Positions 43,226 to 57,224 of a stretch of 64,000 nucleotides of DNA are shown piece after piece. The notes below the pieces were generated by a model that saw only the letters and a program-made list of their open reading frames with translations, was not told the DNA's origin and did no database searches. The stretch's first letter is position 1. Every line of letters begins with the position of its first letter. Position numbers and translations under genes: made by a program. The DNA lies in NCBI GenBank assembly GCA_031416315.1, contig JANOTL010000223.1:1-64000 (forward strand), read 5' to 3'. This DNA comes from Pseudomonadota bacterium (GTDB taxonomy: Bacteria > Bdellovibrionota_B > Oligoflexia > Oligoflexales > CAIYRB01).

Positions 43226-43489
43226 CTAAGCACGCAGCTTCTCGTCCAGCTGACCATTACGGTCCAGGGTGGCCAGCTCGGTGTAGCCGCCGATGAACTC
43301 CTTGCCGATGAAGATCATCGGCACGGTGCGGTAGCCGGCGTTCTCCGCCGAAAGGCGCTGGCGCAGGGCGTGGTCGCGCGAGAGGTCGACCTCCTTGAAC
43401 AGGATGCCCTTTTCCTGCAGAAAACGCTTGGCAGCGGCGCAGTAGCCGCATACCTGCGTGGTGTAGATGACGACGTCCGAGGTCTGCAT
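43226..43489 (-). CDS. grxC: Glutaredoxin (Grx3-like)
   Basis: CGYC, TVPMIFI, IGGYTEL. Confidence 0.88.
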   Translation of the reverse strand: MQTSDVVIYTTQVCGYCAAAKRFLQEKGILFKEVDLSRDHALRQRLSAENAGYRTVPMIFIGKEFIGGYTELATLDRNGQLDEKLRA

Positions 43490-43525
43490 GGGATTCATCC
43501 TTGCAATATATACCGGGAGAGTGCT

Positions 43526-44644
43526 GTGAGCGAGCGCGACAACCCGCGAGAACTGTTGAATTCCTTATTGAGGAAAGCCGCCTCCGCCCTGAGGCTCGCC
43601 CGGACCCGGCCGGTGCTGGCGGACACGATTCTCGCCGACGAAGATGAAACGGAGCTGAGAGCCCGCATTCTCGACGCCTCGGGCGAGCTCGACGCCCCCC
43701 ACCTCACCATCGCCTCCGACGGCCTCGACCTCGGCGCGAAGCTCGAGCTCGAGCGCGCCTTGAAGGCCGAGCTGGAGCTGCCGGACCTCACGATCAACTT
43801 CAGGCGCCAAAAACCTCTCACCGGGCCTCAGACGCCCTTGCCAGCGCGGGGCGCGCAGGCGCCTTTCGGCCTGACCTTCGACCGCAAGGCCATCCCGGGC
43901 GTGCGGGAGGTGATCGTCGTGGCCTCGGGCAAAGGCGGCGTCGGTAAATCGACCGTTGCGGTGAACCTGGCGGCGGCCCTGGCGAAGCGCGGCAGCAAGG
44001 TCGGTCTCCTCGACGCGGACATCTACGGGCCCTCGGCGCCGATGATGCTCGGCGCGCGCGGGACGATGCCGGTTTTCGAAGGCAAGGTCGTGCCGATCCA
44101 AGCGCACGGCGTCGGCGTCGTCTCGTTCGGCTTCCTGACCGACACGACGCAGCCGGTGATCTGGCGCGGGCCGCTCGTCGCGAAGGCTTTGCGTCAGCTC
44201 TGCTTCGACGTCGTGTGGGGCGAGCTCGACTATCTCGTCGTCGACCTGCCGCCGGGGACGGGCGACGTGCAAATGACCTTGATCGAGAGCCTGCCGATCC
44301 ACGGCGCGGTGATCGTGACGACGCCACAGGACGTGGCGCTGCTCGACGCGCACAAGGCGCTCACGATGTTCGAGAAGCTCGAGGTGCCCGTGATCGGCCT
44401 CGTCGAAAACATGGCCCATTTCCACTGCCCGAGCTGCGGCCACGAGGAGGCGATCTTCGGCGAGGGCGGCGGCGACCGGATGGCGCTCGAGCGGAAGCTG
44501 AAAGTGATCGCGCGGCTCCCCTTGGGGCGGATCGTACGCGAGCGGGGTGACTCCGGGCAGCCTCTAGCGCTGGACGCGGACGGCCCGTTTGTCTTGGCGT
44601 TTCGGGAGCTTGCGGAGAAGGTGGCAAAGGCCGGGTGGCAGTGA
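43526..44644 (+). CDS. mrp: Mrp/ApbC/NBP35 Fe-S cluster carrier ATPase
   Basis: SGKGGVGKST, DADIYGPS, IWRGP, DLPPGTGD, VTTPQ, ENM..F.CP.C. Confidence 0.92.
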   Translation: MSERDNPRELLNSLLRKAASALRLARTRPVLADTILADEDETELRARILDASGELDAPHLTIASDGLDLGAKLELERALKAELELPDLTINFRRQKPLTGPQTPLPARGAQAPFGLTFDRKAIPGVREVIVVASGKGGVGKSTVAVNLAAALAKRGSKVGLLDADIYGPSAPMMLGARGTMPVFEGKVVPIQAHGVGVVSFGFLTDTTQPVIWRGPLVAKALRQLCFDVVWGELDYLVVDLPPGTGDVQMTLIESLPIHGAVIVTTPQDVALLDAHKALTMFEKLEVPVIGLVENMAHFHCPSCGHEEAIFGEGGGDRMALERKLKVIARLPLGRIVRERGDSGQPLALDADGPFVLAFRELAEKVAKAGWQ

Positions 44645-44724
44645 GCGTCAAATTTTTCGACAGTCGACCAGCCTCCGTCGCAGGCGTGACGGGGCGTGCG
44701 CCGCGTTTTGAATGATGAAATGCG

Positions 44725-44740
44725 TGGCACGACGAGTGCA
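44725..44740 (+). promoter_or_regulatory. Sigma54 promoter TGGCACGACGAGTGCA
   Basis: GG(-24) and GC(-12) at canonical spacing; imperfect palindrome GTCAAATTTTTCGAC at 44647-44661 could be an activator site. Confidence 0.7.
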
Positions 44741-44750
44741 ATGAGAACGG

Positions 44751-44935
44751 GGCGATCGGGCTCCCCGACTCGCAGGCCCCCTCGGTAAGATTGGTCGTTC
44801 CACTTTGGTCTACGCCCCGTAGGCCGTCCCCACTGCTGTTCTTGTTGCTTACCCGTTGCCCGCTCCCACACCCCCGCCGCCCACGACCAACTTACCACTC
44901 CATCCAAATGGCGCTCCTCCCCGGAGCGCCATTTC
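44751..44935 (+). ncRNA. Putative sigma54-dependent sRNA, copy A
   Basis: 5' hairpin 44752-44773; stem 44784-44798/44883-44896 enclosing a C/U-rich loop; terminal hairpin 44906-44934; motifs shared with copy B. Confidence 0.6.
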
Positions 44936-44966: not shown

Positions 44967-47075
44967 TTAAGCGGACGACTTTTCCTCGTGCCGCGGCCGA
45001 AGCCAGTCCTCAGTCGTCGCGATCCAGACCAGGCTGACGTCGTCGTCTTGCACTGCGGCGGGAGCGCGGCGCTCCGCGTTCTCCGAGCCCCAATCCATCC
45101 GGCAAAGCATCGGCGCCGCCGTCTCCGGCCTGAGCAGCGTCAGCTCGCGCAGACGCTTCTCGATGCGGCGCGAGTTGCGCGGAAACTTGACGCCGTCGGT
45201 GAAGAGCAGCAAGTGATCACGCACGCCGAGGACGGTCTCGCCGAGGGCGACGTCTATGGAAGGCGAGATGCCCAGGATGTTGTGACTCGACATCAGAAGC
45301 TCGAGGGCGCCCTTGCGCTCGGGCGTGTTGGCGCGCAGGACGATCGGCGGCGGATGGCCGGCGCAAAGGAAGGTGCACTTGCCGGAGTCTCGGTCGATGG
45401 TCAGGCCGGCGAGAGTCGTGGTGTGGCCGCCGCGGCCATGCTTGTAGAGCGTGGCGTTCAAGAGCTCGACGTAGTAGCGGATGAAGGTCTCGCTCTCGAA
45501 GTCGGCAGCGCGGTCCCGCTGGAGGATGCTCAGGACCGTCTTGCAGGTCGACACGACGATCGCGGCCTGCACGCCGTGGCCGGAGATGTCGCACATGATC
45601 ACGTGGAGGTAGCGCCCCGACGTCGAGGTCTCGAAGGCGTACCAGTCCCCGCTCGCGCCGTCCAAAGACTGATGGAAGGCGCCGATGTCGATCCCCTCGA
45701 GCTCAGGCGGGCGGTGCGGGCGAAACGCGCTGGCGATCTGTCCGGCTTGCTCGAGCTCCGTCGCAAGGCGCTCGTTCTCGGTCTTCAAGAGGCGCATGAA
45801 TAGGACGAGCTTCTCGCGCATGCCGCTTCTTTGCGCCGAGGCGAAGCCGCCGGCCGTCAGGAAGGCGAGCGTCGGCGTCGTGAGGTCGGTCAGCACGTCG
45901 AAATAGGCGAAGAGCGCGATGCTGGTCGTAACCCAAAGGACGGGGACGAGGGTGAGCGGCGCCCATGCCGGCCAACGCACGAAGCCGACCAGGAAAAGCC
46001 CGAGGAAGACGGCGGCGACGAGGATGCCGCGCGCGGCCGGTAAGGGCGCCACCCACTGGCGGCGCAGGATGCTGTTGGCGAGCGCCGCGACGACGAAAGG
46101 TCCCGGCATCGGGCCGAGCGGCGTGACGGTGAAGTCGGTGTTGCCCGTGTACATCGCGGGGAGGATGAGGACCCAGTCGCCGGGTTCGACCTGAGTCATG
46201 GGCGCGCCCGTGGCTGCGGCCTCGATCAGCGGCAGGAGGCGCTTGGCGCCCTTGTAGAGCGTCAAGGGATGCGGAAAGTCGACGATCATGCGCCCGCGCT
46301 CGTCGAGCGGCACGATTTGCTCGGAGTCGACGGCGAGCTGGCGCGCGTGCACCTTCAGCTCGCGCGCGCCCATCAGCGCCATGTGCGGGAGAACGACGCC
46401 CGGTGCGAGGTCGAGGAGCGCCTGCGCTTTGCCGAAGCCGGCGTTCAGGGAGTGGCCGGGCGTGCGGAAGGCTCGAGCCAAGCGCTTGTCGGGTCCGTAG
46501 GGCTTTTGCATCCGGTAGTTGGCCGCGGGGACGAAACCGTCTTTCATCATCGGCTCGACGCCAGGCGCCACGAAATAGGTCGACAGGTGGTACGAGGCGC
46601 CGCTCGTGTCGAGCGGCTCCCTAAACTTGATCTCGCTCGGCGAGACGAAGGCAGTGGTGACGATCTTTTGGTCGAGCGCGGCGAGCTTCGCAATCGCGGC
46701 CTCTTCCTCAGGCGTCGCCTTCGGCGCGAGCGAGAAGAGCTTATCGATGAGGATGACTTGTGGCTTGCGGAGAGAGAGCCCGTCCAGGAGCCCAGCCCAG
46801 GTGGCGAGCGGCAGATCTGGCGAGCCGATTTTCGAGACGGTGGTGTCGTCGTAGGAAAAGAGCTTGAGCTTCGGGCTTAACGGCGGCGAGCGCCCCAGGG
46901 CTTCGCGCGCTTTGAAGTAGACGGTGAGCGAGAACTTCGTCTCCACCTCGTCGTGCGCATCGGTCGCGTGGTAGCCGATGAAGAGCGTCGTGATCAGCAG
47001 AAACGCCACGGCCATCGCGAGGTAAGAGACCCTCGCGTGCGGTGTTGCGATGCCGATCGATTTCATCACGCCCAT
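44967..47075 (-). CDS. CHASE2-domain SpoIIE/PP2C phosphatase
   Basis: TM + CHASE2-like + 3 TM; SGDWY, CDISGHGVQAA, AGHPPP, FTDG, DDVS. Confidence 0.85.
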   Translation of the reverse strand: MGVMKSIGIATPHARVSYLAMAVAFLLITTLFIGYHATDAHDEVETKFSLTVYFKAREALGRSPPLSPKLKLFSYDDTTVSKIGSPDLPLATWAGLLDGLSLRKPQVILIDKLFSLAPKATPEEEAAIAKLAALDQKIVTTAFVSPSEIKFREPLDTSGASYHLSTYFVAPGVEPMMKDGFVPAANYRMQKPYGPDKRLARAFRTPGHSLNAGFGKAQALLDLAPGVVLPHMALMGARELKVHARQLAVDSEQIVPLDERGRMIVDFPHPLTLYKGAKRLLPLIEAAATGAPMTQVEPGDWVLILPAMYTGNTDFTVTPLGPMPGPFVVAALANSILRRQWVAPLPAARGILVAAVFLGLFLVGFVRWPAWAPLTLVPVLWVTTSIALFAYFDVLTDLTTPTLAFLTAGGFASAQRSGMREKLVLFMRLLKTENERLATELEQAGQIASAFRPHRPPELEGIDIGAFHQSLDGASGDWYAFETSTSGRYLHVIMCDISGHGVQAAIVVSTCKTVLSILQRDRAADFESETFIRYYVELLNATLYKHGRGGHTTTLAGLTIDRDSGKCTFLCAGHPPPIVLRANTPERKGALELLMSSHNILGISPSIDVALGETVLGVRDHLLLFTDGVKFPRNSRRIEKRLRELTLLRPETAAPMLCRMDWGSENAERRAPAAVQDDDVSLVWIATTEDWLRPRHEEKSSA

Positions 47076-47091
47076 ATAGGACGTGATCGGC

Positions 47092-47946
47092 TCAGGCGAC
47101 GATAGGCTGGAACGAGACCTTGCTCTCGTCGTCGACGAGGAAGAAATGGTTCGCCGGGATCTTCTTCCAGTCCTCGCGCAATCCGGTCAGTTTTTCCGAA
47201 ACGACCAAGACGGCATGCTCTTTGGCATCGGCCGGCACCATCCGGCAAATGCCGTCCTCGCACTCGTAACGGCTGCCTTCGCTCACGTAGAGGGAGAGGG
47301 GCTCTTCCTCGGTCGTGACGAAGCGGGTGCCGATCATGTACTTGCCGTCGGTGACGACCATGTTGAGGTAGGTGCCGTCTTTGACGCCTTGCGCCTTCTT
47401 CAGGGCCTCGACCTCGGTGATCGTCTGCTGCATCGCGGAGACCATCGCCTGGATGCCGTAGAGACCGTTGTGCTTCAGCATCTTGTCGATGAAGAGCGCG
47501 AAGAAGTGCTCGGAGTCGGTGCCGCCGCGAAGCCACGCGTAGACCTCGTCGGAGAGGCCGCGGCGCATCTCGCGCTTGATCTGGTCGAAGCCCTCGATCG
47601 AGCCGTTGTGCATCATCAGAAAGCGGTCGTAGAAGAACGGGTGGCAGTTGGCCTCGGACGTCTCGCCGAAGCTGGCCGCGCGCACGTGCGCGAAGATCAC
47701 CGGCGCCTCGATCTTCGGCGCCATGGTGCGGAGGTTCCGGTTCGACCAAGCCGGGTGGACCGAGACGAAGACCGCCGGCGTGGTCGAGAGCTGCGGCTGG
47801 TACCAGCCGATGCCGAAGCCGTCGCCGTTCAGGGGCTCCTCCAGCTCCTTGGCGTCGTAGCTCTGGTGGATCAGCGAATTCTTGGGCTGATAAAGGAGCT
47901 TGTCCAGGATGATCGGCGCGCCCTTGTAGGCTAAGAGCCGGCACAT
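47092..47946 (-). CDS. Class II glutamine amidotransferase (EgtC/YafJ/Dug3-like)
   Basis: N-terminal MCR, NGDGFGIGWY, AHVRAA, NCHPF, MHNG, G.TDSE. Confidence 0.9.
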   Translation of the reverse strand: MCRLLAYKGAPIILDKLLYQPKNSLIHQSYDAKELEEPLNGDGFGIGWYQPQLSTTPAVFVSVHPAWSNRNLRTMAPKIEAPVIFAHVRAASFGETSEANCHPFFYDRFLMMHNGSIEGFDQIKREMRRGLSDEVYAWLRGGTDSEHFFALFIDKMLKHNGLYGIQAMVSAMQQTITEVEALKKAQGVKDGTYLNMVVTDGKYMIGTRFVTTEEEPLSLYVSEGSRYECEDGICRMVPADAKEHAVLVVSEKLTGLREDWKKIPANHFFLVDDESKVSFQPIVA

Positions 47947-48002
47947 GGTGTTGTCTCCTTACGACATATACGCCGATTCTATCATGGAATAGAATCGCTT
48001 CC

Positions 48003-48704
48003 ATGCCGAGCCGCGACAAATACTCCATCCACCGGCAGCCCGACGACGTGACTTGCGGGCCGACGTGCCTGCACTCGCTCTACGCGTATTACGCCGACGG
48101 GATCACGCTGGACGAGGTCATCGGGCAGGTGCCGATGCTGGAGGGTGGCGGCACGCTCGCCTGCGTCTTGGGGAGCCACGCCCTCCGACGCGGCTACAAG
48201 GTGTGGATCTATACGTTCAATCTCACCGTCTTCGACCCGACCTGGTTCTCGCTCCCGCGCGAGGCGCTGGCCGAGAAGCTCCGCCTCCAGATGAAAGAGA
48301 AGAAAAAGCCGAGGCTCCACGTCGCCTCGCAAGCCTACATCGACTTTCTGAACCTGGGCGGAGAGATCAAGTGCCACGACCTCTCGGAGGGCCTCCTCAG
48401 CGAGTATCTCCTGCAAGGCATTCCGATCCTCACCGGCCTGAGCGCCACTTATCTTTACAAGTCGATGCGCGAGTACGGCGACTATCCTATCTCCGACGAC
48501 CTCAAGGGCGAGCCGCAAGGCCATTTCGTCGTCATCACCAGCTACGATCCCGAAGAGCACGCCGTCACCATCGCCGATCCCTATCATCCCGAGTCGATGG
48601 TCAAAGGCCGCACGTACAAGGTGTCGATGGAGCATCTCGTCTGCTCCATCCTCCTCGGCGTCATGACCTACGACGGCAACCTGCTCATCGTGACCAAATC
48701 GTGA
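48003..48704 (+). CDS. C39-like papain-fold peptidase
   Basis: Q....TCGPTCL, GHFVV, IADP catalytic pattern. Confidence 0.8.
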   Translation: MPSRDKYSIHRQPDDVTCGPTCLHSLYAYYADGITLDEVIGQVPMLEGGGTLACVLGSHALRRGYKVWIYTFNLTVFDPTWFSLPREALAEKLRLQMKEKKKPRLHVASQAYIDFLNLGGEIKCHDLSEGLLSEYLLQGIPILTGLSATYLYKSMREYGDYPISDDLKGEPQGHFVVITSYDPEEHAVTIADPYHPESMVKGRTYKVSMEHLVCSILLGVMTYDGNLLIVTKS

Positions 48705-48726
48705 GCCCAAAGACAAAGGCATCCTG

Positions 48727-50195
<1,469 letters not shown>

Positions 50196-50199
<4 letters not shown>

Positions 50200-51458
50200 G
50201 TCGTACCGAGCACCTTCATCTCTGGGCAGGGTACGGCATCGAGATGGAGTACATGATCGTCGACCGAAAGACCCTGGCGGTGCGCCCGATCTCCGACGAG
50301 CTTTTGACCGCGGCCGCCGGCAAGCTCGAGAACGAGGTCGAGTTCGGCGACATGGCCTGGTCCAACGAGCTCGTGATGCACGTCATCGAGGTGAAGACCA
50401 ACGGCCCCTCCGACGAGGTGACGCGCTACGGCGAGAAGTTCATGGTCGAGGTGCGAAGGATCAACGCCTTGCTCGAGAAAAAGGGCGCGATGCTGATGCC
50501 GACGGCGATGCACCCTTTCTTCGAGCCGGACGAGGAAACGAAGCTCTGGCCGCACGACAGCCGAGACATCTACGACCGCTACAACGAGATCTTCGATTGC
50601 CGCGGGCACGGCTGGTCGAACCTGCAGTCGGTGCATATCAACTTCCCGTTCTTCGATCACGGCGCGGGGGGCGAGTTCGGGAGGCTGCACGCCGCGATCC
50701 GCATGGTTTTGCCGCTCCTGCCGGCCTTGGCCGCCTCGTCCCCGATCTACGGCGGACGCGCCAACGGCCTGAAGGACAACCGGCTCGAGTTTTACCGTAT
50801 GAACCAGCAGCGCCTGCCGGCGTTGACGGGCGGCGTCATCCCAGAGCGGGCGTTCACACGCGAAGAGTATGCGGCAGAAGTCTTCAAGAAGGTGATGGCC
50901 GAGGTCCTTCCTTACAACGAGGACGGTTTACTGGAGGAGGAGTGGCTCAACTCGCGCGGCGCGATCGCGCGCTTCGACCGCAACGCGATCGAGATCCGCG
51001 TGCTCGACATCCAAGAGACGCCGAAAGCCGATCAAGCCGTGATCACCGCCGTGATCGGCTTCGTCCAGGCTTTGGCGGCCGGTGAGTTTCTGGCGCCCGA
51101 TAGGCAGCGCGAGTGGGAGCAAGAGCCGTTGCGCCGCATTTTCGAGGCCTGTGTGAAGGGCGGAAGCGAGACGGAGATCGAGGATCGCGCCTATCTGGAT
51201 GCCCTGCATTATCCAGGAAAGTCTCCGGCACGGGCGCGAGACGTCTGGAAGCACGTGATCGAGCGCAGCGCGCGGCGGGACGTGGTGGCGCCGTGGTTCA
51301 AGGCGGTGGAGGCGGAGCTCGGCGTCTATCTCAGCCAGGGAACACTCGCGGAGCGCATCGTTTCCGCGGCCGGCTCGACGACGAAGCGGGAAGACGTCGT
51401 GGACATCTACCGCGAGCTTTGTCTCTGCCTCGCCGAAGGCCGGATGTTTCGGGCGTGA
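50196..51458 (+). CDS. Glutamate-cysteine ligase family 2 (GCS2) carboxylate-amine ligase
   Basis: YGIEMEYMIVD, NELV.HVIE.KT, HGWSNLQSVHIN, ASSP, NSRGAIARFDR.AIEIRVLD. Confidence 0.88.
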
Positions 51459-54277: not shown

Positions 54278-54293
54278 TGGCACGCGAGCTGCA
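54278..54293 (+). promoter_or_regulatory. Sigma54 promoter TGGCACGCGAGCTGCA
   Basis: GG(-24) and GC(-12) at canonical spacing with no plus-strand gene downstream. Confidence 0.7.
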
Positions 54294-54303
54294 CAAGGGC
54301 AAG

Positions 54304-54480
54304 CGTCCCGACGATCAAGCATCGGACGGACAAGGCTACATCAGATCTGTCGGTTGGACCCGTTGCCTGCTGTGCTCCCTGCTGATTCCCGCTCCCACTC
54401 CCCCGTCCCACTCCCGACAAAGCCCCTACCGGCCGACAGGTCAAAAACGAAGAAGAGAAGGCCCCAAGCGGGCCTTCTCG
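54304..54480 (+). ncRNA. Putative sigma54-dependent sRNA, copy B
   Basis: 5' hairpin 54304-54328; 14-bp stem 54344-54357/54429-54442 with G-U pairs enclosing a C-rich loop; terminal hairpin 54455-54479. Confidence 0.6.
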
Positions 54481-54506: not shown

Positions 54507-56462
54507 TCAGGCGTGAGCGGCGACGCGCCTCAGGACGGCGATCGCCGCGTCGAGGGTCGCGGCATCGGTGGCCTCGGGCCAGGCGCCGAAAACGATGAGA
54601 CGTTTGGCGTTTTTCCCGTCGAAAGCGCCGGCCATCAACCGGGCGCCCGGGCTTTGCCAAGCGGCCAACGGTTTGAAGTCGACGGCGCGAGCGGCGTCGT
54701 AGGCGGCTTGCCATCCGTCGGCGTAGCGCGAAAGGCCCGCGACTAGGCCTTGCGTGACGTAGCCGTACAGATTCTGCTCTTCGAGCAGCGGCGGCGTAGC
54801 GCCGTCGGCTTTCCAGACGCAGATGGGCTTTGCCTGCTTGCCGTCCTGGACGAGGATCAAAGCCTTCGTCAGGCCGGCGGCGGCGAGCGCCGGGGCGGCA
54901 CGGCGGAGGGCGCTCGAGAGGTCTTTGGCCATCGTCAGGCCGACGAGCGCGCGATTCAAAGCGGCGACGCGCGCCGCGGCGGCGGTGGTGAAGTCTTCGG
55001 CTTCGGACTGCAGCTCGTCGGGCTCCGGCTCCAGAGCAACGCCGGCGGCTCTGCGCGGCGCGGGCTGCGGCGTCGCGAGGAGGTCGGCCTCCTCGTCAGG
55101 AGATAGATCGTCAAAACCCGGAAACTCGCCGTCGAGTTCGAGCGCGTCTTCGTTTTCGTCCGTGGCCGGAGCCGGGAGCGAGTTGCCGCCGTCTTCGAGC
55201 GCGAGCTCGCCTTCGAGGTCGAACGCGCCCAGCGGGTCTTTTTCGGCCGCGGGAGGCGGCAGGTCGAGCGGGGCGTCGGCCTCCATCGACAGCTCGCCGA
55301 GGGGTTCGTCGAGAAAGCCGTCAGGCGCCGGGGGGAGGCCGTCGTCGTCCATCGCCAGGTCGGCCGCCGGCGCGCGCGGACCGTCCTCCGTCATTTCGAG
55401 CTCGTCGAGAAGGTCGGGCTCCGCCGGCGCGGCGTCCTCCGCCAGATCGAGCTCAGCGAGCAGGTCGGCATCATCGAGCGCTGACGGGGTGCGGGCGGCC
55501 GGCTTCGCCGCATTCTCGGCCTCGTCGAGCGCTTCGAAGAGGTCGGGCTCCGGCGGTGCGGCACTTTCGGCGACGTCGAGCTCGCCGAGCAGGTCGTCCT
55601 CATCGAGGAAGGCACCGGCCGAGTCTGGATCTTTCGTGGGTGCCTCGCTTATGTCGAGCTCGTCGCCGATCGAGTCGTCGTCGAGCAAGTCGTCACCGTC
55701 TTTTTCGTCGCTCTCGGCCGTCTTCGCGGTCGCCACTGGCGCAGCGTCGTCGTCCAGCCCAAGGCCGGCGAGGGGATCGGCGTCCGCGTCGCTCATGCCG
55801 AGATCGGCGAGGGGATCGCCGCCGCCTTCGAGGTCGAGATCGGCGAGAGGATCGCTTGCGGACGCATCCTCGGGGCCGAAGTCGAGCTGGTCGTCGAGCC
55901 CCAGGTCGGCGAGCGGATCCGGAGCTCTGGCGGCGACCGGCGCCGGCTTCGCCGCGGCTTTCGCCGGCGGCGGTGGCTCAGTCTCAAAGCCGAGCTCGTC
56001 GCCCGTATCCTCGACGCCGTCGCTGAAGTCGATCGTGGCGAGGTCGTCGTCCCCGTCGGCCTCGGCCGCGGGCGAGATGGCGCCGAAACCTTCGCTGAGG
56101 TCGAGGTCGTCGCCCGAGGCGAGATCGCCTTCGGCGTCGGGCGAGGCGCCAAGATCCTCGAACGGCGCCGTCGTCTTCTTCTTCGCCTGCGCCTTCGGTG
56201 CCGCGAACGGATCGTCGAGGTCGCCTAAGCCGTCGGGGCCTTCCAGCTCGTCGAGCCCCTCAAGACCGAGGAGCTCGTCGTCCGCGCCGCCCGCCGTGAC
56301 GCCTGCGGCGCCTTCGATGTCGTCCATGTCGCTCATGCCCGCTGGATCGGGCTGCGTGACGGCGCCCGAGAGGCCGGTGAGGCCGGAGTCCTCGGCGGCG
56401 TCCAGCGTGTCGACCGTGGGACCGGCGTCTTCGCCATCGGTTTGCGTCAGCTCGCCGAACAA
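54507..56462 (-). CDS. Very acidic low-complexity protein; probably the C-terminal part of the 57224 ORF
   Basis: D/E/L/A/P-rich repeats (DPLADL); same frame as upstream ORF across a single TAG. Confidence 0.6.
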   Translation of the reverse strand: MFGELTQTDGEDAGPTVDTLDAAEDSGLTGLSGAVTQPDPAGMSDMDDIEGAAGVTAGGADDELLGLEGLDELEGPDGLGDLDDPFAAPKAQAKKKTTAPFEDLGASPDAEGDLASGDDLDLSEGFGAISPAAEADGDDDLATIDFSDGVEDTGDELGFETEPPPPAKAAAKPAPVAARAPDPLADLGLDDQLDFGPEDASASDPLADLDLEGGGDPLADLGMSDADADPLAGLGLDDDAAPVATAKTAESDEKDGDDLLDDDSIGDELDISEAPTKDPDSAGAFLDEDDLLGELDVAESAAPPEPDLFEALDEAENAAKPAARTPSALDDADLLAELDLAEDAAPAEPDLLDELEMTEDGPRAPAADLAMDDDGLPPAPDGFLDEPLGELSMEADAPLDLPPPAAEKDPLGAFDLEGELALEDGGNSLPAPATDENEDALELDGEFPGFDDLSPDEEADLLATPQPAPRRAAGVALEPEPDELQSEAEDFTTAAAARVAALNRALVGLTMAKDLSSALRRAAPALAAAGLTKALILVQDGKQAKPICVWKADGATPPLLEEQNLYGYVTQGLVAGLSRYADGWQAAYDAARAVDFKPLAAWQSPGARLMAGAFDGKNAKRLIVFGAWPEATDAATLDAAIAVLRRVAAHA

Positions 56463-56570
56463 GTCGTCGGCGTCGAGGTCTTCGCTGATCGCGAGCGGAT
56501 CGCCGTCCCCGTCGGGCGCGCTGAAACCTAGCTTTTGGCTTTCCTCGGCCGCCTCGACCGAGTCCGGGTA

Positions 56571-57224
56571 CTAGAGCGCGGCGTCCGCGTCGACGTCCTC
56601 GACCTCTTCGATCGGCCCGGCGAAGTCCTCTTCCTCGCGCAAGGCGGTCGCCGCGCCCGCGTCGAATGCGGGCGCACGCGAGACGGCGCGGGGCGCCGTG
56701 GAGCCGCCGGCGCGGTCCAGCAGGCGCAGCCGGCGGTTCGCCGAGCTCGCGTGGTTGATGATCAGCTCCTCGAGGTGCGAGGTCTGCGGCCGGTAGTTTT
56801 TGATCAGCTTCTCGAGGCCCAGGCGCACTTGGGTGAACGTGGCGATGTGCGGCGTGACGCGGTAGCCGGTGAAGAACTCGACCTGCTTGATCGTGTCGTG
56901 ATCGAGGGGATCGACCATCGCGACGTGCAGAACCTGGCCCTCGACGCGCAGCGGCATGACCTCGAGGCGCTCGACGAGCGGAGGGTCTAGCGTGCCCCAA
57001 GCCTCGCGGCTCGATTCGCGCGCGAGGTCCTTGGCGCACATCTTCCAGCGCGTGCGCTCCGCGAGGAAGGCGGCGAGCTCGTCCTCGTCCAAGAGTCCCA
57101 AGGCGAGGACGGCCCGCGCGAAGGCGGAGCCGTGCGTGCCGCACGTGCGCCGGATGGTGCGGCGGTCCGCCTCGGTGAGGAGGCCTTCCTCGACCAATAG
57201 GGTTCCCAGACCGGAAGTTCCCAT
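56571..57224 (-). CDS. GspE/PilB N-terminal (MshEN/T2SSE_N-like) domain protein, ends at an in-frame TAG
   Basis: LGTLLVEEGLLT...LGLLDEDEL..FLA; VMPL...L.VAMVDPLD...I..VEF.TG. Confidence 0.75.
   Translation of the reverse strand: MGTSGLGTLLVEEGLLTEADRRTIRRTCGTHGSAFARAVLALGLLDEDELAAFLAERTRWKMCAKDLARESSREAWGTLDPPLVERLEVMPLRVEGQVLHVAMVDPLDHDTIKQVEFFTGYRVTPHIATFTQVRLGLEKLIKNYRPQTSHLEELIINHASSANRRLRLLDRAGGSTAPRAVSRAPAFDAGAATALREEEDFAGPIEEVEDVDADAAL

Follow-up and report, generated by a model that had tools for sequence, protein, structure and literature searches.

We identified an RNA family of the order Oligoflexales that is almost certainly real and is uncatalogued. Two of its copies, A and B, lie in the stretch of DNA analysed here, 64,000 nt of contig JANOTL010000223.1 (hereafter the window). 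Each copy follows a sigma54-type promoter and folds into a long stem that encloses a pyrimidine-rich loop. On balance we lean slightly towards the RNA being a decoy for a dedicated RNA-binding regulator, acting by mimicry of mRNA leaders.

Structure of copy A

An earlier note, made from the letters of the window, had proposed a structured RNA between mrp and a convergent PP2C gene. The −24/−12 promoter, 5′ hairpin, long-range stem and 12-bp terminal hairpin that it described were all recovered by sequence inspection and folding, and the promoter is close to the sigma54 consensus. The region is laid out as follows.

43370 to 44644, + strand: mrp/apbC gene, the conserved neighbour of A-type copies (context, outside the RNA)
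44725 to 44740, + strand: sigma54-type −24/−12 promoter of copy A, TGGCAC-N6-TGCA, predicted start 44751 (sequence)
44751 to about 44937, + strand: structured RNA gene, copy A, predicted transcript of ~185 nt
44751 to 44773, + strand: 5′ hairpin SL1 (fold)
44784 to 44798, + strand: long closing stem, 5′ strand (fold, covariation)
44800 to 44826, + strand: CCAC(A/U)UU linker and internal hairpin (44805 to 44826), conserved and typical of A-type copies
44827 to 44882, + strand: pyrimidine-rich single-stranded loop in which (C/U)G(C/U)UG units recur, a predicted protein-binding array
44883 to 44896, + strand: long closing stem, 3′ strand (fold)
44906 to 44934, + strand: 12-bp terminal hairpin with a TCCCC loop (fold)
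44967 to 47075, − strand: CHASE2-PP2C gene, convergent, not a conserved neighbour

The long-range stem comprises 14 bp with one bulge. The internal hairpin inside it, overlooked by the earlier note, is kept in A-type copies and missing from B-type copies, and the open loop that follows is 56 nt long, with its motifs about 0.65–0.71 unpaired in the predicted fold. The folding z-score of copy A is −2.97. An SL1-like hairpin is present in most homologues and missing from five copies whose promoter lies 28 nt upstream. Judged from the modelled fold, the terminal hairpin is likely a terminator with a short U-tail, and it may also serve the convergent PP2C gene. U-tailed hairpins occupy this position in several homologues, and the TCCCC loop is not conserved among them.

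Copy B is a paralogue of copy A

The element at 54304, which the earlier note had taken for a paralogue, proved to be one by its similar fold, its covariance-model match and its B-type orthologues. Its features are as follows.

54278 to 54293, + strand: sigma54-type promoter of paralogue B (sequence)
54304 to 54480, + strand: paralogue B (fold, covariance-model match, B-type orthologues)
54313, + strand: GAUCAAGCAUC, within the 5′ hairpin (fold)
54344 to 54357 with 54429 to 54442, + strand: stem (fold)
54358 to 54428, + strand: loop (fold)
54452 to 54479, + strand: terminal hairpin (fold)
54507 to 57224, − strand: MshEN/PilB-N-like domain gene with a long acidic tail, a conserved convergent neighbour

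The fold of copy B resembles that of copy A minus the internal hairpin (z-score −1.80), and when the window was searched with a covariance model built from other sequences, copy B came second among the matches (E 0.008 in 64 kb, weak alone). The loop words previously noticed as common to both copies were found, namely ACCCGTTGCC at 44851 in A and 54358 in B, CTGCTGT at 44833 and 54367, and CCCGCTCCCAC at 44859 and 54388. A and B contain the only two occurrences of the pattern GCTCCCAC[A/T]CCCC in the whole 6.36-Mb genome. B-type copies (54313–54323 in the window; loci L124, L125, L127, L129 and L130) have a common 5′ hairpin loop, C(A/U)AGC, which is not seen in A-type copies and could be a second binding or processing site.

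Distribution, promoter and covariation of the family

BLAST of copy A against 60 relatives gave short chance matches only, and the first homologues came from pattern and synteny searches. We built a covariance model of just the long stem and loop from 12 sequences, leaving out the promoter and copy B. Among the 95 genomes of the order it matched 35, in 8 of the 16 families and with all 12 genomes of the window's own family included; the matches at E below 0.004 number 38. Two of the nearest named relatives of mrp bear the label uncultured Oligoflexales and the rest just Proteobacteria or Pseudomonadota, which makes Oligoflexales the probable order. Four further B-type copies beside an MshEN-domain gene were found by their promoter, and five other regions adjacent to such genes held no B-type copy. 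The family thus totals 44 loci, with one to three per genome, and these counts are a minimum, since a one-round model undercounts divergent and B-type copies. Genome G004 has three copies, a tandem pair behind mrp (L089:1094-1209 and 1501-1616) and one of B-type (L129:2104).

The sigma54-type promoter that the earlier note saw ahead of copy A recurs across the family. The element was found 28–74 nt upstream (mostly 45–48) at 39 of 40 loci, that is, the 38 model matches plus two B-type loci, compared with 2.5% of random windows. Since two or three seed sequences and both added B-type loci came from promoter-containing patterns or from the window itself, the independent promoter test consists of the 27 loci newly found by the model, 26 of which carry the element. 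The rpoN gene is present in all 12 genomes of the window's family.

The long stem covaries. The MAFFT alignment shows two-sided changes in 14 of 22 stem pairs, and sliding the partner strand lowers pairing from 84% to 24–44%. All 22 pairs show two-sided changes in the model-fitted alignment of 34 sequences, the fitting of which leans towards structure. The controls on both alignments ignore the tree.

A scan of the whole window with Rfam 15 gave no match at the gathering score, and copy A gave none at E ≤ 10. One snoRNA fragment near copy B was rejected as a chance match, and one weak match among 14 homologous loci (P9, E 0.21, 25 of 43 bits), over the downstream hairpin, was also discarded. 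There was no credible match in the 36 genomes outside the order, out of 131 in the class and phylum searches; the single out-of-order match (E 0.25, no promoter) is likely due to chance, and two further weak matches within the order were rejected. The phage collection gave no match to the RNA, and metagenome pattern searches returned 0 and 3 matches, all resembling known family members. The proposal of a new sRNA family, for which the earlier note had suggested a covariance model and an Rfam scan as checks, therefore stands: the model search of relatives produced homologues with covarying stems, and the scan produced no known family of substance.

Genomic neighbourhood

Among 19 flanking regions with mrp, the gene lies upstream on the same strand in 17 and is convergent in 2; a convergent MshEN-domain gene is present in 13 flanking regions. 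Four more genomes have an MshEN-domain gene within about 2.5 kb of a single copy, with mrp on the other side in two. The ancestral order was likely mrp, RNA, MshEN gene. About 9 kb of other genes now separate copy A, beside mrp, from copy B, beside the MshEN gene, in the window's genome, and the synteny suggests that the two copies are duplicates of one ancestral locus between these genes.

Since its orientation is flipped in places and its neighbours change, the RNA looks like an independent gene. This bears on the possibility that the RNA does not act in trans, the locus being instead part of the 3′ end of mrp, a gene for a small peptide or a DNA repeat of the dispersed kind. Copy A does lie 80 nt behind mrp on the same strand, but the family has its own promoter at 39 of 40 loci, is inverted relative to mrp in two genomes and lies away from mrp in many. 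Moreover, each genome holds just one to three copies, the stems show compensatory changes, and no SD-like sequence precedes the reading frames that open in A or B. We regard this possibility as highly improbable.

The region between A and B (47092–51458) contains a cluster of genes for an EgtC-like amidotransferase, a RimK-like ATP-grasp ligase and a carboxylate-amine ligase. In six relatives the A-type RNA is immediately followed by the ATP-grasp gene together with a C39-like peptidase gene. The MshEN-domain gene (57224 to 54507) is split by an in-frame TAG at 56571–56573 on the − strand into 217 and 687 codons, and its orthologue in genome G001 is unbroken at 1078 codons. Contigs of run X1 end at this TAG, with one differing letter each. 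The TAG may be a strain variant, an assembly error or a true stop.

The loop conserves a repeated G-triplet

The loops of 34 sequences average 57 nt and are 71% pyrimidine. CUCCC, which the earlier note had singled out as the key loop motif, occurs in 15 of the 34 (CTCC in 22), compared with 33 for GTTG; TGCTG and CCGTT occur in 27 and 23, respectively. The conserved feature of the loop is a G-triplet repeat (GUUG), rather than CUCCC. (C/U)G(C/U)UG units number 2–6 per loop and are lacking in one loop of 34. One B-type copy, in G004, consists of five near-tandem UUCCCGUUG-like units, and another copy is a run of CUGUUG/CUGCUG. Since the number of units differs between copies, the loops resemble multivalent sponges.

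Pairing with ribosome-binding sites

The earlier note had offered two interpretations, pairing of the exposed CUCCC motifs with SD sequences or titration of an RNA-binding protein. We calculated duplex energies of the loops with 900 start regions, using gene starts from our own simple gene caller (5335 genes). Copy A gave −20.6 compared with −21.1 ± 0.4 for eight shuffles, and copy B gave −22.1 compared with −22.2 ± 0.4 for another eight. Since loop pairing is at the shuffle level, the anti-SD idea is unsupported.

In a narrower form of pairing, the C/U-rich loop would block the G/A-rich ribosome-binding sites of a few specific mRNAs, and a genome-wide mean energy would not reveal a few true targets. 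C-rich seed loops occur in other sRNAs, CTCC is frequent in the loops as noted above, and GGAG is strongly enriched just before starts. However, starts are poor in the complement CA[AG]C[AG]G (0.54 vs about 1.0 per kb), the duplex energies stay at the shuffle level, and the loop sequence drifts and its repeat number varies, unlike a fixed seed. We therefore consider a base-pairing sRNA of this kind unlikely.

Loop-like tracts in mRNA leaders

To find tracts resembling the loop, we trained a 4-mer score on 33 loops of other genomes and applied it with a cut-off of 30. In the window's genome, 27 of 2692 leaders exceed the cut-off on the sense strand and none on the antisense strand; the corresponding numbers for 1658 trailers are 3 and 1. 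C-richness of the sense strand is a general property of leaders in this genome and inflates the sense-over-antisense excess. Ten dinucleotide shuffles of the leaders left 2–10 above the cut-off vs the 27 real ones, block shuffles left 6–14, and reversed leaders 14, so the signal is partly general C-richness and partly motif order. When triplets alone were counted, 16 leaders had three or more copies vs 3–12 in controls and 5 had four or more vs 0–2, with no excess at two copies. A few of the 27 leaders are merely C/U-rich and unconvincing by eye.

Of 56 non-coding windows with high scores, 36 have a start on the same strand no more than 120 nt away; in the remaining 20, copies A and B take first and fourth place. 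The last motif begins 5–24 nt before the start in 19 of 24 motif-bearing leaders. The triplets are not in frame with the start (27/99), and short patterns of motif, SD and ATG gave no separation from controls. Sigma54-type promoters precede 10 of the 27 tract leaders vs 136 of 1939 others (p 1e-5), and signal-peptide-like N-termini, assigned by a crude rule, follow 16 of 27 vs 1028 of 2600 (p 0.047). A Pfam scan of 21 tract-leader genes found matches in 8, plus one weak match; the classes are phospholipase D (PLD), nuclease, GDSL lipase, metallopeptidase-like, two FtsK, sugar transferase and VWA protein. The window's genome contains 35 strict sigma54 promoters, many of them before short leaders of secreted or DUF4360-like proteins.

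Of four genes tested, two have orthologues that retain the tract. A gene for a 115-aa protein has it upstream in 5 of 5 orthologues, including one from another family (scores 50–77). For a gene encoding a 117-aa protein, the score is over 25 in 11 of 28 orthologues and under 25 in the other 17, with the antisense score never above 2; its own genome and one miscalled start were left out of the 28. Sigma54-like promoters lie further upstream of the 117-aa gene in 19 of 29 cases. The sugar-transferase gene conserves the tract in none of 4 orthologues, and conservation for the PLD gene is weak (19.6), with one more row lacking a leader.

The 115-aa protein (L139:1545-1889; G000:C142:8541-8888) has the best-conserved motif leader and belongs to no Pfam family; its atlas match is a Bdellovibrionota hypothetical protein (0.96). 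The 117-aa protein (L138:1718-2068; G000:C153:90217-90570) is conserved and helical, has no known family, and has the strongest motif leader, with a sigma54-like promoter. The protein was found in 66 of 95 genomes, and in several genomes of the family its gene precedes ftsK at a distance of about 12 kb from rpoN.

Two other genomes were sampled. A 1.2-Mb sample of the distant RNA-bearing genome G080 has 2 of 543 leaders above 30 (antisense 0, shuffles 0–1), one of which is a clear motif leader, and no leader excess at a score of 20. A 0.8-Mb sample of G030, in which no RNA was found, has 1 sense vs 2 antisense leaders above 30 and 1 vs 12 at 20. The two samples agree in direction and have little power.

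The leader tracts bear on two further explanations. The RNA might be a decoy for a general pyrimidine-binding machine, Rho or ribosomal protein S1, with the leader tracts being attenuation sites or translation enhancers. The pyrimidine content and length of the loops, the broad C-richness of leaders on the sense strand and the presence of rho are consistent with the binding preferences of Rho and S1, and Rho loading sites are C-rich and G-poor. On the other hand, the tract is confined to about 1% of leaders, and the loops carry a regularly spaced conserved G (GUUG, UGCUG), which to our knowledge is not a need of Rho or S1. This explanation seems quite unlikely. Alternatively, the RNA might be a sponge for another small RNA with a CAACAG/CAGCAG-type seed that pairs with both leaders and loop. 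RNA-RNA sponges are known, and such a sponge would account for the same sense-strand likeness of loop and leaders, but no convincing free-standing tract of complementary repeats was found among the 20 high-scoring non-leader windows of this 93%-complete genome, a search that would miss a short seed. We consider a sponge of this type very unlikely.

A decoy model

The titration branch of the earlier interpretation is now favoured over SD pairing by the sense-strand leader tracts and their conservation in orthologues. In the decoy model, the predicted ~185-nt transcript from the sigma54-type promoter would sequester an RNA-binding protein. The loop, ~57 nt and G-poor, is clamped open by the covarying stem and presents 3–5 (C/U)G(C/U)UG units amid C/U tracts. 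Some 27 mRNA leaders carry tracts of this kind in the sense orientation, immediately 5′ of the ribosome-binding site, and the protein would bind these leaders and impede initiation. Activation of sigma54 by an enhancer-binding protein would raise the level of the decoy, which would draw the protein away and free translation. Since many tract mRNAs have sigma54-type promoters of their own, the arrangement would form a feed-forward loop. Transcription, sigma54 dependence, protein binding, leader repression and relief by the RNA are all predictions of this model.

Hfq, ProQ and SpoVG were not found in the window's genome, which is 93% complete. Present in it are four genes for RRM proteins, KhpA and a second, weaker KH match, a weak cold-shock domain, Rho, and one CsrA match over the cut-off. 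RRM proteins are present in 94 of the 95 genomes of the order and, being near-universal, do not track the RNA; the leaders of the RRM genes themselves are without the tract. Judging from presence only, RRM proteins or KhpA/B would be the best protein candidates. The 117-aa protein, as a candidate for a self-regulated partner, has no Pfam or PDB sequence match; its helical model has a pLDDT of 77, the best fold match a Z of 4.8, and the atlas matches are under 0.9.

Comparison with known systems

Few protein-sponge circuits are known in bacteria (Csr/Rsm, CrcZ, GlmY). CrcZ and CrcY of Pseudomonas, the Hfq/Crc sponges, carry a sigma54 promoter, as do, by sequence, 39 of 40 loci here. However, their A-rich AANAANAA motif is present in only 1 of 34 sequences here and (ARN)4 in none, the loop being instead close to the complement of AANAANAA, and their partner Hfq was not found in the window's 93%-complete genome. 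GlmY, the RapZ decoy, is also under sigma54 control, but GlmY mimics one sRNA, whereas many mRNA leaders would be mimicked here, and there is no sequence match. Cuckoo-type anti-SD sRNAs carry CCUCCUCCC in hairpin loops, unlike the present family (0 of 34). According to PMC8058203, sequestration of a protein by a non-coding RNA is the logic of CsrB and CrcZ, CrcZ/CrcY likewise occur as paralogous copies, and GlmY is a decoy acting by mimicry; the sequestration is proposed here. That source also describes CsrB/CsrC/RsmY/RsmZ, sponges of CsrA, as having a repeated motif also present in target leaders, as we propose for this family. Unlike CsrB/Rsm, the present RNA lacks GGA in all 34 loops (ANGGA is present in just 2 of the 34 complete stem-loops), has one large open loop rather than many small hairpins, and has no Rfam match. 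A repeated motif common to the RNA and putative target leaders in the same sense, a trait of protein-sequestering sRNAs, was found here, with modest results in the triplet-only and second-genome tests.

Pxr of Myxococcus is likewise an intergenic sRNA driven by sigma54, with paralogues, in a related predatory lineage, and PMC5568312 describes it as about 110 nt long, with three short stem-loops of which SL1 and SL2 are conserved, behind nla19. The RNA here differs in its long-range stem, large loop and neighbours, and has no Rfam match. Two systems offer analogies: the FopS family of Bacteroides, paralogous sRNAs bound by the RRM protein RbpB (PMC11697453), and Rli31 of Listeria, a SpoVG-binding RNA related to a 5′ UTR (PMC4959528). 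FopS, however, represses by pairing near the start codon, SpoVG was not found in the window's genome, and neither RNA has a sequence match here. Attack-phase sRNAs of Bdellovibrio are reported to have no homologues outside that species (PMC3627812). No description of the RNA was found in the literature searched; subscription papers and supplementary motif catalogues could hold one.

The family offers a test of another sponge circuit in a genome where Hfq, ProQ and SpoVG were not found, with the loop as bait, a defined motif and a set of leaders predicted to be targets. Its partner, if found, would be a new regulator acting after transcription, or else RRM or KH proteins of these bacteria would gain a motif and a decoy. 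Should the mechanism be wrong, an uncatalogued RNA family of 44 loci with covariation support would still be left. More tentatively, and with rather less than even confidence, Csr and Crc/Hfq may be joined, in the Oligoflexales, by a third global sponge circuit. It would comprise sigma54-driven decoys, a so far unrecognised translational regulator that reads (C/U)G(C/U)UG, a regulon of leaders rich in secreted proteins and in conserved, lineage-specific small proteins, and feed-forward wiring, and it could gate a lifestyle switch such as predation.

An intergenic hairpin elsewhere in the genome (G000:C53, about 1290–1400, + strand) has UUGUUG and CUGUUGCUGU words in its loop and a second, U-tailed hairpin after it. 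No gene start lies downstream, and the element is possibly a third decoy of another shape.
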